The notes under the pieces: generated by a model
What the model was told of the DNA's origin: nothing
Databases searched by the model: none
The model's input: only the letters and a program-made list of their open reading frames with translations
Shown here: positions 14,871 to 62,269 of the stretch, one piece after another
Position numbering within the stretch: the stretch's first letter is position 1
How the letters are laid out: the number at the start of each line of letters is the position of its first letter
Origin: Eledone cirrhosa
Taxonomy: Eukaryota
Direction: 5' to 3'
Assembly (NCBI GenBank): GCA_964016885.1
Contig: OZ024740.1
Span: forward strand, 93,434,001-93,498,000
DNA length: 64,000 bases
Program-made: the position numbers and the translations under genes

Positions 14871-14973
14871 GAACGAGTAGGACCCCGACGGCTGAGCTCA
14901 AGCCGTTTCGACGGCTAGTCCAGAATTAGCCGTCGAAACGGCTTGAGCTCAGCCGTCGGTGTCCTACTCGTTC
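14871..14973. repeat. GC-rich fold-back hairpin containing the 3' half of an HHR on each strand
   Basis: gacggct-agtccagaatt-agccgtc GAAA cggcttgagctcagccg TC ggtg, mirrored; related pieces at ~20280-20390 and ~61240. Confidence 0.8.
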
Positions 14974-15079
14974 CTATTACCCACTCTACTACCCTAAGTA
15001 TTCAGTACTTTGGTGCTTTATGGTCCACCTGGTACCTTACCACATTTATTCCGTTATATATATATATATATATATTATT

Positions 15080-15628
15080 TTGTAAAATAAATTCCCAAAT
15101 GCAAGCGCGAAGTATAATGAACTTGTTCATGTGACAGTTATAATTTCATTTTTAACCAATCAAATTACGCTTATAAAAGAATGCCTTCGTGAGCTACCGT
15201 TTTTTTTAAGTAACAAGTAATTCAAACACGAACTGGCGCAAAAGCTGATGTTCATATTCTCGTGACTGCATTAACCAACCAAACTTCACTCATATATGAA
15301 TAGACAACCTGAGACCCCCCCCCCTACCGCTTTGTTTGAAGGCACATATAATGAGAACTTTGTAACCTGAACTGGCGTGAAATTTATTATACGTATTCAC
15401 CAGCCAGCCAAACTACTTCTCGAAAAACCTAGCATTTCCAGCCACTTTTATCCATATAAAACAGAAGTAACATTCAAAGACCAACCAGATGTGAGAAAAA
15501 CCACAAACCCTCGATCTCAATTCTACTTTTGAAAAGAAGAAGAACTGCGAACCCGGTAAAGGAACCAAATAAATATATATTTAAAAAAAAAGACTCCAGT
15601 TGCATTTCAATATCAGCTTTTTCACTTA
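15080..15628 (+). mobile_element. Interspersed repeat family B (PLE-terminus-like, carries mutated U3-A8 HHR)
   Basis: Homologous to 32540-33090, 33310-33670 and 38328-38695; ends directly in (AT)n. Confidence 0.75.
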
Positions 15629-15886
15629 TATATATATATATATATATATATATATATATATATATATATATATATATATATATATATATATATATATATA
15701 TATATATATATACATTACATTTTGCTCTGGTACTTACATAGAGCACTCTTCACTTCTATGACCTTTTCTGCTTTCAACGGAAATTTCAATACTTATATAT
15801 ATATATATATATATATATATATATATATATATATATATATATATATATATATATATATATACATGGACATTATTAGAATGTTAATG

Positions 15887-16006
15887 TTGAGTTCAAATCC
15901 CGCCGAGGTTAACTTTGCCTTTCATCCTTAAGGGGTCGATAAAATAAAGTACCAGTAATGTACCGGGTAATTGCTGGCATTGAATAAAAAGTAGAAACAA
16001 TTATTA
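15887..16006 (+). mobile_element. SINE copy 3, 5'-truncated
   Basis: gagttcaaatcccgccgaggttaactttgcctttcatcc...aaagtagaaacaattatt. Confidence 0.85.
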
Positions 16007-16899
16007 CAATGTTAATGAATAGTAAATTAAATCTCAAATTTAAACGATGGTATATTTGCAGACATTGTTATTGTTGGTGTGATGCAAAGATGTATACTAT
16101 CCCTCACCCACACCCATCAACATCAATCCATCATTCCGGCGTTATATCCTACTTTGCTTCCATTACATTTCTTCCGACTCCATATCTTCTTTCTTCATTT
16201 CCAACCCATCCATCACTACCTTTAAACGTGCCCATAATCTCCATGTCCAACATATAAGTAGATCGCTCTTCTCTTCCACTACGACTCCATCTGACTCGAA
16301 TCTATATTATTGCCACCATGGTGACACCTGTACGTTCCTTTCCAACTTCATCTATTCTCTTGTAAATTAATTGTTGTTTCCATACCTGCCACACCTCTAT
16401 CGCCCCCTCGACTAATGTTGTACATGCCCTAGAATGCTTTTTTTGCGAGACCTTATAAATCAGAAAACAGGCCACCGCTGGATGAACTGATTTTCAGAGA
16501 ACTTGAAGGATATACGGCTTCACATATATAACCTCGTCTCTTATCATTTCCATACCCCACACCTCTTTATACATATCTCTGTCCTGGAGGTCATATTTTG
16601 TCACGTGTTGCCAACCTCACGCACCAGGGTCCAACAGAACTAGATTTTCCGCGTTGTGTCCACTTTCGGAAATGAATTTAATATCTCAAAATGTTCTTTG
16701 CTTTATGCGTACCCTGCACACAAGCCAATGCTAGCAGCTCAATACATCTGTCTACTGAGACTCCTACGGTTTCAAGAGTGTGCACATTCACTCCTCAATT
16801 TTCATACAGATTCATTACGGTCAGTATAAGTCTAACAATAGTTTTAACAGGAATACCATTAAAATGCCTTAATCTGCAATTGCCAATTCACACACGTAT

Positions 16900-17240
16900 A
16901 CAAACAATCCTGAGGTTGGGTTCTTGCTGCAATTGTATAAATAAAGACTACAGTCACCCAAGTAATATATTTTATGGGTGTAATGTTCATACACCAAGCC
17001 TTCATAAGGTTTACGTAGGCTTAACCACCAACATATGTAAGCAGCTTTTATACATGCACTCTCATTAATTTCGGCCACTTTTGGCTATATTGGGATTAAA
17101 ATGACAATAACATACAATGTAGTTTAAATTGAGAAAGCATATCTAAGTTTAGGGATTATAACATAAATAGAATACGTAAGGATATCTCTGTCGCTGAATT
17201 CCTGGAAATCCGTCAGCCATCAAATGTATTAAAAACAAAT
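16900..17240 (+). mobile_element. Decayed PLE GIY-YIG endonuclease fragment
   Basis: CNCINK..NIFYGCNVHT..KVYVGLTTN..KQ resembles PLE endonuclease motifs. Confidence 0.5.
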
Positions 17241-59071: not shown

Positions 59072-59162
59072 TCCCTTGATAAGCTGGCTTACCTCACAAC
59101 AATGTTACATATCTATGATATAACATTATTGCATAGTGACCAGCGAAACTGTACAGTCGGGA
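59072..59162 (+). ncRNA. Type I HHR, U3-A8 core, extended stem II
   Basis: UCCC UUGAUAA GCUGG..(aatgtta/taacatt inner helix)..CCAGC GAAA CUGUACAG UC GGGA; lies between ~40-bp direct repeats at 58591 and 59173. Confidence 0.78.
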
Positions 59163-59268
59163 CAACAGAAAAATAGGTATATTGTATCTATTATTCCTTT
59201 TTATAATATTTTATATATATATATATATATATATATATATATATATATATATATATATATATATATAT

Positions 59269-60407
59269 ACTCTGTCGAGAGCTTTATTCGATTTGTGATA
59301 TTTTGCATTTTAGAAATATTATACACAACTGAATTCATTCGCCTAATATAGGTGTTGCCTCCCTTGCTGAACCCTACGTGGAGTCACTTACAGACACATT
59401 TATGTGGAAAATCGAACTGAATCCCGTTGACAACGCGTCCTCCTAGTTCGGTCATACTACCAGAAGCCTAACATCCATTATGTAAACGGACAGTAAATGA
59501 CTTATGGAGCCGCAGAAACCCAAATACTGGATTTTACCATCTCTCCAGGTTCGGGTAAACTTTCAACCATATATATTGTTATATATTTTTATATTTTTAT
59601 ATCTGTTTGACCCGAATTAGACGGGCGTTTTTACGCTGTGCGGATGATTAGTTTAACCACCATCTCAGTGTGTTTGGCCTTTAACTTAAGTTGTAGCTCT
59701 AATTCATATGACATATCTAGCGTATGCCACACAACTCGGAAGTGTTTTTCGTTAATTCCTGAGCTGAAATTCGATTCTCGCTAATTTTTACTTGTATTAA
59801 TCTCCAGAGTCCAGCTATTTGGCCAGTTAATTTTATCGATTTTTTTTTGTTTATACTGTTGACTGTTGAATAGCTTTGTTATATTTAACAACTCTGTCGA
59901 GAGCTTTATTCGATTTGTGATATTTTGCATATTCGCAATATTATACACAACTGAATTCATTCGCCTAATAAAGGTGTTGCCTCCCTTGATGAACCCCACG
60001 TGGGATCAGTTACAGACATATTTATGTGGACTATCGAACTGAATCCCGTTGACAACGCGTCCTCCTAGTTCGGTCATACTACCAGAAGCCTAACATCCTT
60101 TATGTAAGCGGACAGTAAATGACTTATGGAGCCGCAGAAACCCGAATACTGGATTTTACCATCTCTCCAGAGTTCCGGGTAAATTTTCAACCATATATAT
60201 TTTATATATTCTTATATTTTTATATCTGTTTGACCCGAATTAGACAGTCGTTTTTTCGCTGAGCGGATGATTAGTTTAACCACCATCTCAGTGTGTTTGG
60301 CCTTTAACGTAAGTTGTAGCTCTAATTCATATGAATTATCGAGCGCTTGTCACACAACTCGGAGGTGTTTTTCGTTAATTCCTGAGCTGAAATTCGATTC
60401 TCGCTAA
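59269..60407. repeat. Partial tandem repeat, 622-bp period, between (AT)n tracts
   Basis: actctgtcgagagctttattcg at 59269 and 59891; ~515 bp duplicated. Confidence 0.93.
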
Positions 60408-60990
60408 TGTTTAATTATATATATACATATATATATATATATTATATATATATATATATATTATATATATATATATATATATATATATATATATATATAT
60501 ATATATATATATATATATATATATATATATATATATATATATATTTTTATATATATATATATATATATATAGAGAGAGAGAGACGTTTGAAGTTAGAAGA
60601 CCAGAACAATGTAGGTTTGGAGATAGAATATAAATGTTAAAGATAGCGCTGACAATTTGTCTTTTACCTTAATTTATTCAATTTATTCATGTCCTGGTAT
60701 TTCGAATTAATATATCTTATTCTGAGGAAAGGAAAGGGGTTAATCCAGAGTTGTTCGAAGTAGGTAATCTGATGAGAACGCAAATATCGTCCCTGGATGA
60801 TATTTGTTTTTGAAATGCGCATAATAAAATACATGGAACTTTTTATTGTATGTATATATATATAATGTAGGAGGTGAGTTTCATTGTAGCGCAATAAAGC
60901 AATGCAAATATCAGATAAGTAGCACTCAACAGTTTATTGGACTAGAGTATATATAAGAAGAAACTAAAAGATGGTTAACAAAGTTCCATG

Positions 60991-61061
60991 TATTGTATTA
61001 TGCGCATTTCAAAATCAAATATCATTCTGGGACGATATTTGCGTTCTCATCAGATAAAATA
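60991..61061 (-). ncRNA. Type I HHR with long stem II; inverted twin at 60765-60831 (+)
   Basis: UAUUUUAU CUGAUGA GAAC GCAAAUAUCGUC..AUGAUAUUUG AUUUU GAAA UGCGCA UA AUACAAUA; palindromic AUGCGCAU. Confidence 0.65.
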
Positions 61062-61555
61062 GGGTGACATTATATGAAGCTTAAACAAACATCTGTGAGC
61101 AAGGTAGTGTATAATCAACATATGTTGATATATAGTAATAATAATAAATGTGAAGACTAAAATTCAAAGAGGGCTCAATAGGGTTAACTATATATATCAA
61201 ATATATAAGTACCGTAGTGCAAATATCGGGTCTAGCTATTGAAACGGCCGAATTCAGGCGTCGGTGTCCTGACTCTTTTCATACATACACACACTCACAC
61301 ACACACACACACACACATACACACACACACACACACACACACACACACACACACACACACACACACACACACACACACACACACACATATATATATATAT
61401 GTATATATATATATATATATATATATATATATATATATATATATATATATATATATATATATATATATTTATATATATATATATATAGTGGTGGAACACT
61501 GGAAGGTGTTATCTGAGGATGTAGAGCACTCATCCATGGGTCGAGTTAGGCAGAA

Positions 61556-62269
61556 GTGGTTACACAACAGTTAGTTCAGTATACCGAGAACAATTGTTTC
61601 ACCTTAGCGGGTCCTCAGCTCGGAATGGGCATGGTTATAGGAACAGGAAGGACACCGCAGGAACGCGCATGAGCAGAAAATCGGTCACTTCACAGAGGCA
61701 ATGCTAGACTGCGTGCGAGAGTTGTAAGGGAGATAACTGCAAAAGTCCGAACAGTTTTTAAGTTGAAAATTACAAAGATTCAGTCCGGAGCCGTGTAGTT
61801 ATGCAGTAGGTGTTTGGCGAGGTGTGTACAAGGTGTGAATAATTCATTTCTCGTGTTTAGACAATCACTATTGCGTAATATCTTTAGAATAGTTATTCGT
61901 TCGTCTATACATAAGCCACACGTCGGATTTCCCCTTGCGTATGGGATGGACTTACATTGAATCGTGTAGTCTATACTTGAGTCCTTGAGGGACCATACGT
62001 GGCTCGCGAGTTTCGTGGATGGACGTCTTTCCGGGTAGCTGAAGGTAGACTGGTGTTTCAAAAACGCTCCTGATTTTATTTTCAACCTAAAAAGTTTCCG
62101 ACTTACGCACGCAGTCTAATATTGCCTGTGTGAAGTGACCAGGTTTCTGCGCATGCGCTTTCGGTCGGTTGTCCTTCCTGTTCCTATAACCATGCCCATT
62201 CCGAGCTGAGGATCCACTAAGGTGAAACAATAGTTCTCGGTATGGTGAACTAACTGGTGTGTAACCACT
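61556..62269 (-). mobile_element. Short PLE 3' fragment between inverted pseudo-LTRs
   Basis: ORF 61780-62085 STKLASHVWSLKD..CGLCIDE..LNTRNEL..CTH; 61556-61722 is the reverse complement of 62099-62269. Confidence 0.85.
61584..61623 (-). ncRNA. Minimal type I HHR; plus-strand twin at 62201-62240
   Basis: CCGAG CUGAGGA CCC-GCUAA-GGU GAAA CAAUUG UU CUCGG. Confidence 0.68.

Follow-up and report, generated by a model that had tools for sequence, protein, structure and literature searches.

A 64-kb stretch of the Eledone cirrhosa genome (assembly GCA_964016885.1, 3.0 Gb in 1796 contigs; OZ024740.1:93,434,001-93,498,000; 'the window' means this whole stretch) contains about 50 copies, in about 18 families, of motifs whose sequence supports their assignment to the type I hammerhead ribozymes (HHRs) of Penelope-like elements (PLEs). 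Most probably, these motifs derive from type I hammerheads at the 3′ ends of many PLE families and from a short tandem offshoot, and the source elements would cut their RNA as strand-swapped dimers. An initial annotation of the window had centred on palindromic stems III and their bearing on dimerisation. The reading of such palindromes as dimer contacts is a published property of PLE hammerheads (PMC4209133; PMC3088659, Fig. S8 legend; PMC6765202). As a restatement of that property, the observation matters little, and most of the remaining interest is carried mainly by the density of the motifs and by families in which core position U4 is replaced by A (A4).

The window was scanned for the type I order, that is, stem I, core CUGANGA or UUGANAA (the U3-A8 variant), stem II, GAAA, stem III, H and stem I. 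Closure of stem III by A15.1-U16.1 and one more Watson-Crick pair was demanded, whereas a palindrome was not. Ten hammerheads, nine of them palindromic, were found at a score of at least 6.5, compared to a mean of 0.13 (maximum 1) in 30 block shuffles and none in the reversed window. The core CUGANGA alone, used as a query, misses the U3-A8 and A4 families. The fuller count given above was obtained by anchoring on the 3′ half of each family, by Blast with genome copies, and by anchored alignment of the families; searches of the species' own genome gave 661 to 2167 first-look candidates per family, of which 40 were scored each. A genome sample of 139 blocks of 10 kb (L011-L030, L056-L114 and L200-L259; 1.39 Mb), placed at regular coordinates and hence not strictly random, was scanned in the same way with the core CAGANGA added. 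It yielded 184 matches, against 3 to 8 in 10 shuffles, falling into 40 clusters; two tandem arrays account for 26 of the 184.

The initial annotation had counted about 10 families, nearly all with a palindromic stem III. Every stem III that it listed was found directly after GAA in the window, and the presence of many families is upheld, but curation raises their number to about 18. Palindromy holds for the nine scan matches and, in its strict form, for 13 of the 18 or so families, the others having AGAACU (two families) or stems of 16, 17 and 19 nt; genome-wide, however, a strict palindrome is the commonest stem III in only 16 of 40 clusters. Many of the window copies are decayed: the core (CUGANGA or U3-A8), GAAA, UH and three stems in type I order are present in 17 of 32 non-satellite copies. 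Among 14 satellite units, read by eye, seven keep all core bases and two keep the core, a perfect palindrome and both stems.

The surroundings of the motifs point to PLEs as their carriers. The families have fixed 3′ ends (median 43 to 319 bp past GAAA) and ragged 5′ ends, and 5′ truncation, inverted truncated copies and partial tandems, the insertion pattern of PLEs, are all present. Six window families appear to sit just 3′ of Penelope-like reverse transcriptase (RT) or GIY-YIG fragments, two of the six as judged by eye. Family J1 (44927..44971, motif 44966-, core intact) lies just downstream of a GIY-YIG endonuclease fragment (45205..45621, -; PF01541, E 2.5e-05); its relative J2 has GIY-YIG or RT upstream on the same strand at 10 of 18 loci, and the 41704 family at 9 of 24. 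In the window, the 41704 motif (41672..41706, -; core CAGUUGA, 4-bp stem II, AUAUAU, UA site) follows a broken Penelope-like open reading frame (ORF) with RT and then a GIY-YIG-like part (42130..44017, -; PF00078, E 1.8e-08; tblastn). The AUAU family has PF01541 upstream at 3 of 19 loci, and in the window a GIY-YIG-like fragment (57566-58034) precedes its decayed minimal hammerhead 58217+ (whole region 57566..58251, +; family core CAGANGA); a second decayed AUAU copy lies at 60724 (-). For the ACAAUUGU-c and 14871 families the upstream ORF looks PLE-like by eye, and a PLE-like ORF was found upstream of family F2 at one locus (L110). The window ORFs are retroelement fragments; Pfam placed RT at 42851-43504 (-) and 5134-5919 (+) and GIY-YIG at 45205-45621 (-), and assigned no family to seven of the ten window ORFs tested.

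The region 50765..54750 has a typical PLE layout, with an element (ORF pieces 53357-51111, -; 3′ hammerhead J2 at 50804-) and a second copy, inverted and truncated at its 5′ end (GIY-like 53912-54410, +; hammerhead 54711+, AGAACU), as described for PLEs (PMC8557442). The motifs at 44927 and 54702 had been taken for a single family; they belong to two related ones, J1 and J2. They had also been singled out as the non-palindromic exception, and the two stems III in question, AGGACU and AGAACU, are indeed there, but most J1 copies do not share the AGGACU of the window copy: of 16 that were sampled, 3 have it and 13 have AGAACU.

The putative tandem offshoot is represented by a 320-bp array (27855..32417, -; 14.2 copies), each of its 14 units containing a ACAGAGCUCUGU hammerhead with a U3-A8 core. 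It matches the non-LTR retrozymes (LTR, long terminal repeat), which have a non-coding tandem unit of 150 to 450 bp with one type I hammerhead each. The likeness to non-LTR retrozymes (PMC7229834) extends to AT-richness, and the array differs by its U3-A8 core and its 12-nt palindromic stem III. Retrozyme-type arrays are reported to derive from the pseudo-LTRs (pLTRs) of PLEs (bioRxiv 10.64898/2026.07.22.740005). Further tandem arrays were seen at L233:281-3381 (310-bp unit, ACGCGU) and L258:279-9567 (about 420-bp unit, ACUAGU); a portion of the 310-bp unit is similar to a portion of the window 320-bp unit, on the opposite strand.

If stem III forms between two copies, its innermost pairs should be complementary as well. 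Since the stem of a hairpin is self-complementary anyway, the test lies in those innermost pairs that would leave fewer than three loop bases. The 30 even-length clusters (10 odd-length ones among the 40 were left out) have 49 such pairs that are impossible in a hairpin: 35 are Watson-Crick, 6 are G.U and 8 are mismatches. Against author-set expectations of 0.28 and 0.40, 41 complementary pairs of 49 give P of about 4e-10, which overstates the significance because the families are related and not independent. This supports the pairing of PLE hammerheads with palindromic stem III as dimers, as the initial annotation and earlier publications had it. The versions with G.U pairs are not DNA palindromes, which points to the RNA, and not a palindrome in the DNA, as the object of selection. 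At one hairpin-impossible pair, two closely aligned copies (L229/L051) differ by a double change (ACAAUUGU and ACGAUCGU), and two sister families have AUAU and AAUU as stem III. Predicted energies, calculated from fixed structures, agree: hairpins of stems III of 6 to 10 nt lie at +1.5 to +6.0 kcal/mol, and in-register homoduplexes of palindromic or G.U-containing stems at -2.2 to -13.4 kcal/mol (1 M values that include neither core nor linker terms). The prediction that a short stem III forms solely between two copies is thus supported. It is not general to all families, as four long stems III are predicted to close alone as monomer hairpins (-1.3, -1.4, -1.8 and -7.1 kcal/mol).

Several points weigh against this reading. 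The stem III AGAACU of J1 and J2 is not palindromic and is predicted to be unstable both as a hairpin (+5.6 kcal/mol) and as a duplex (+2.4 kcal/mol); it is kept in 22 of 24 J2 genome copies, and no other families are linked to GIY-YIG ORFs as firmly as J1 and J2. Searches with Rfam gave no hammerhead family at E ≤ 1 in the window and none at the gathering score in four genome loci, the only matches being chance miRNA-like hairpins below that score. Three families have changes in CUGA that are predicted to impair cleavage. Pfam gave no match at E ≤ 0.01 for the ORFs upstream of the ACAAUUGU-c and 14871 families, and a search of some families for PLE ORFs within 1.5 kb came up empty at the loci of AUGCGCAU (0 of 9), ACUGUACAGU (0 of 14) and ACCAUGGU (0 of 13).

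With these points taken into account, we still consider it probable that cleavage is dimer-dependent, weak and, in all likelihood, assisted by protein, and takes place in PLE or retrozyme transcripts of tandem form. Within a single transcript, two copies (the pLTR pair of a tandem element, or satellite units next to each other) would exchange strands, the core of copy 1 using the stem III, the cut site and the stem I 3′ arm of copy 2; the palindrome would be the symmetry that a homodimer requires. Activity would probably be low without the element's own protein, and families with long stems would probably fold as monomers too. We propose that compensatory drift in stems I and III is what makes the families differ, and that any family specificity would be a by-product of both stems. 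Most genomic copies have no partner on their own strand and would do nothing in transcripts made by read-through. A double-hammerhead model reportedly goes back to Forster in 1988. A single minimal HHR (min-HHR) is described as inactive, dimers and trimers being weakly active (PMC4209133). The HHR of the Anolis PLE PAc cleaves solely with its protein, its cleavage is unneeded for insertion in vitro, and no RNA-seq reads start or end at its cleavage site (PMC11167929).

Some families have changed cores. In a census of core changes, A4 stood above background (11 matches compared to 0-2 in 790 kb, and 17 compared to 1-2 in 1.39 Mb). Other variants were weak (C[CG]GA, 6 compared to 0-1; CU[ACU]A, 8 compared to 0-3), and eight of nine TAGANAA matches were one AT-rich repeat. 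A4 was found in 26 of 28 copies of family F2 in the 1.39 Mb, including L011:8573+, and in all 20 copies of the AUAU family that have the core (one truncated entry was dropped). In the 41704 family the core is CAGUUGA (A4 and U6) in 25 of 26 copies; this family is young and abundant, its copies being 96 to 98% identical to the window copy, with 1688 candidates. The AUAU, F2 and 41704 families lack the canonical CUGA turn and were classed as hammerhead-like, not counted as active members. Of 19 copies of a young sister of the AUAU family, 18 have U4; in GIY-YIG this sister is about 80 to 85% identical to the AUAU family, compared to about 50 to 59% for most 41704-family matches, so that A4 either arose at least twice or reverted once. 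Every single or double mutant of the CUGA region made in a type III hammerhead is low in activity, save for the C3G/G8C swap (PMC9901934). Perreault 2011 (PMC3088659) names U4C and A6C in its text, and not U4A; no natural U4A variant was found in the literature text that was searched, including the supplement text of PMC4209133, figures and Lunse et al. lying outside this search.

Recently active PLE families would have an altered CUGA turn (U4A in three families, one of them young and with A6U as well) and would have kept GAAA, stems I and II and, in two of the three, the palindrome. There is a small chance that these sequences represent either a new protein-assisted core or a non-catalytic RNA dimerisation signal for the ribonucleoprotein; the latter, if true, would account for insertion in vitro that does without cleavage. 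More broadly, the paired fold might be kept for a non-cutting job, such as joining two element RNAs on a dimeric RT-endonuclease, cleavage being dispensable in some lineages. This, too, we hold to be unlikely. The young CAGUUGA family, which has kept its stems, GAAA and palindrome, speaks for it, as do the fixation of A4 in the AUAU and F2 families, the low activity of CUGA-region mutants, and the PAc system, where HHR mutants left in vitro insertion unaffected and a dimer is predicted for the protein (PMC11167929). However, 152 of the 184 sampled matches keep the canonical core and another 15 the U3-A8 core (which is partly built into the scan), and single core changes of other kinds hardly differ from background, if at all. 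The young AUAU sister keeps U4. A4, being shared by descent, may be tolerated decay, and the AUAU loci were picked by likeness to an A4 query.

Each family was further supposed to have its own dimerisation code in stem III. This is not supported: ACAAUUGU is common to three window families (17849-, 24290-, 61618-) and a remnant at 14746-, and to five of the representatives compared below, and compatibility between families is at chance level. Stems III common to at least two families each were ACAAUUGU, ACUAGU, AUAUAUAU, AUAUGUAU and AGAACU, and four sequences are shared between genome clusters, so stem III is not by itself a family code. From the topology of a strand-swapped dimer, U16.1, H17 and the stem I 3′ arm would come from the partner, which would make stem I intermolecular too, and any specificity would need stem I as well. 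We compared 22 representatives (J1 entered twice) in 462 ordered pairs; 62 are predicted to allow a stem III of at least 4 bp, 36 a stem I of at least 3 bp, and 6 both. The expectation under independence being 4.8 (36 × 62 / 462), there is no sign of avoidance between families. Full stem III pairing is predicted for 24 cross-family pairs, 20 of them among the five ACAAUUGU representatives. The families are therefore predicted to be largely orthogonal through both stems, though not beyond what drift would produce.

A selected, private stem III code that prevents cross-cleavage is accordingly a very improbable explanation. The coexistence of 36 distinct commonest stems III among the 40 clusters and the rarity of predicted functional heterodimers (6 of the 462) could be read in its favour, but the sharing of stems between families and clusters goes against it, and the six compatible pairs match expectation. 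Among ACAAUUGU families, the sisters a and b (17849/24290) differ in stem I but not in stem III, family c has no likeness to either beyond the 12-13-nt motif, and all 20 ordered pairs among the five representatives are blocked by stem I alone (at most 2 bp).

The strand-swapped dimer also requires partners. Among 127 family-by-block sites, 75 were solo, 36 had an inverted partner alone and 16 had a same-strand copy within 5 kb, block edges hiding some partners. As inverted pairs lie on opposite strands, they cannot supply two sense copies. In the window, same-strand cases are the 320-bp array, ACCGGU 32922/33564 and ACUAAUUAGU 50569/50047. The proposal that cleavage would need two copies in tandem transcripts thus suits source elements and arrays, but not the bulk of the copies. 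That the palindromes are instead DNA-level features, such as protein-binding or endonuclease sites or fold-back by-products, merely resembling ribozymes, is hardly credible: inverted fold-backs are very common (14871; 45 of 127 sites with an inverted partner) and Rfam finds nothing, but the palindromes stand in exact register between GAA and UH, together with stems I and II and with C3-G8/U3-A8 covariation, and their G.U-containing versions are not palindromic as DNA.

The mean density in the genome sample was 1.32 matches per 10 kb (bootstrap 0.99-1.71), with 66 of 139 blocks empty, or about one intact-looking hammerhead per 8 kb. In a bootstrap from this sample, the probability of at least 10 matches per 64 kb was 0.29, and that of at least seven families per 60 kb was 0.23, so the window is nothing unusual here in its density. 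Scaled up, the sample implies about 3-5×10^5 intact-looking motifs in the genome, or some 4×10^5 as a single figure, a density that is possibly among the highest known. With other descriptors, about 9,000 min-HHRs were reported in Xenopus tropicalis (PMC4209133) and 126,247 type I HHRs in the axolotl (PMC7229834).

The closest known system is formed by the metazoan PLE pLTR hammerheads of Cervera and De la Pena 2014 (PMC4209133), which share the type I order, a palindromic or absent loop 3 and the U3-A8 variant. They also occur as many heterogeneous families per genome, mostly as solo copies, with opposite-strand pairs 100 to 700 bp apart and a site 3′ of RT/GIY-YIG ORFs. The present motifs differ from published PLE hammerheads by their much higher density, though the descriptors differ, and from those of PMC4209133 by stems III that reach 19 nt, long inserts in stem II, the A4 and A4/U6 cores, a mismatch at the base of stem II (16 of 40 clusters) and U17 (8 of 40). 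Pairing of a palindromic stem/loop III between two copies is also found in Perreault 2011 (PMC3088659), along with the U10.1-U11.1 mismatch, a 2-bp stem II and U3-A8, all seen here. The PAc Poseidon hammerhead (PMC11167929) is likewise PLE-borne, with genomic copies that extend past the cut site; protein-dependent cleavage was shown there.

The other window copies include those of the three ACAAUUGU families. Family a (17747..17855, -) is intact with a long stem II insert, and has a decayed inverted partner at 19997-20098 (+). Its sister b, which differs in stem I, forms a head-to-head inverted pair (24186..24401; 24290- intact, 24297+ decayed). Family c is an inverted pair with a 2-bp stem II and a UU site (61584..62240; 61618-, and 62206+ with one palindrome break), beside a PLE ORF fragment (62064-61896, -). 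The remnant of a further ACAAUUGU family (14700-14830, -), kin to L059, is decayed (score 67 compared to a null maximum of 39). ACCGGU has six copies in the window: one with a U3-A8 core that has lost A15.1 (15529..15565, +); 32922+, 33483- and 33564+ with intact U3-A8 cores (32916..33599), of which the same-strand pair is 642 bp apart; and an inverted pair (38463..38627) with 38498- intact and 38592+ lacking A15.1. Other inverted pairs are those of ACUAGU (55316..56066; 55352- and 56030+, both intact, with U.U at the stem II base) and AUGCGCAU (60766..61061; 60769+ and 61053-, both cores intact). Single intact copies belong to the ACCAUGGU family (45962..46037, -; 46034, core intact) and the ACUGUACAGU family (59072..59163, +; 59076, U3-A8 core). 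Two direct ACUAAUUAGU copies (49971..50575, -) comprise 50569 with an intact core and 50047, which is decayed, as are copies of the ACAGUUCUAGUCCUGU family (33994) and of the AGAACU family J2 (34166) within 33988..34205 (+). Remnants of F2 (44504-44544 and 1660-1700, -) have the core CAGAAGA, a 17-nt non-palindromic stem III and a UU site.

At 14871..14973 only a hammerhead's 3′ half is present, as a fold-back (3′ arm of stem II, GAAA, 19-nt stem III, UC site), and the CUGANGA core is lost; full copies with a core lie at L192, L194 and L089, and many near-identical fold-backs are found genome-wide. The fold-back inversions at 14871-14973, 33406-33641, 38421-38668 and 24142-24442 turn inside the hammerhead or immediately upstream of it. 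Candidates at 47379/48439 (GAA-ACGCGU-A in a 530-bp triple repeat), 20939-, 57598-, 8801+ and 46277+ were rejected for want of core or family support, and the J2 copy at 14685 was a false match. The 530-bp dispersed repeat itself occurs three times at 47231-48502 (+), with no core recognisable on the + strand. The window has a G+C content of 35% and many (AT)n arrays. A broken non-LTR-type element at 2102-5922 (+) has RT (PF00078) at 5134-5919 and low-complexity ORFs upstream. A 213-aa fragment at 63047-63688 (-), without a match in Pfam, is presumably like the C-terminus of a restriction-like-endonuclease retroelement.

The several hundred thousand motifs that this genome seems to contain, and that Rfam misses, would serve studies of covariation as a natural library. 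Where families agree in stem III and differ in stem I, they are ready-made pairs for tests of partner specificity. Finally, whether cutting by the ribozyme is needed by PLEs could be tested directly on the young A4 or A4/U6 elements, with the U4 sister as a control.

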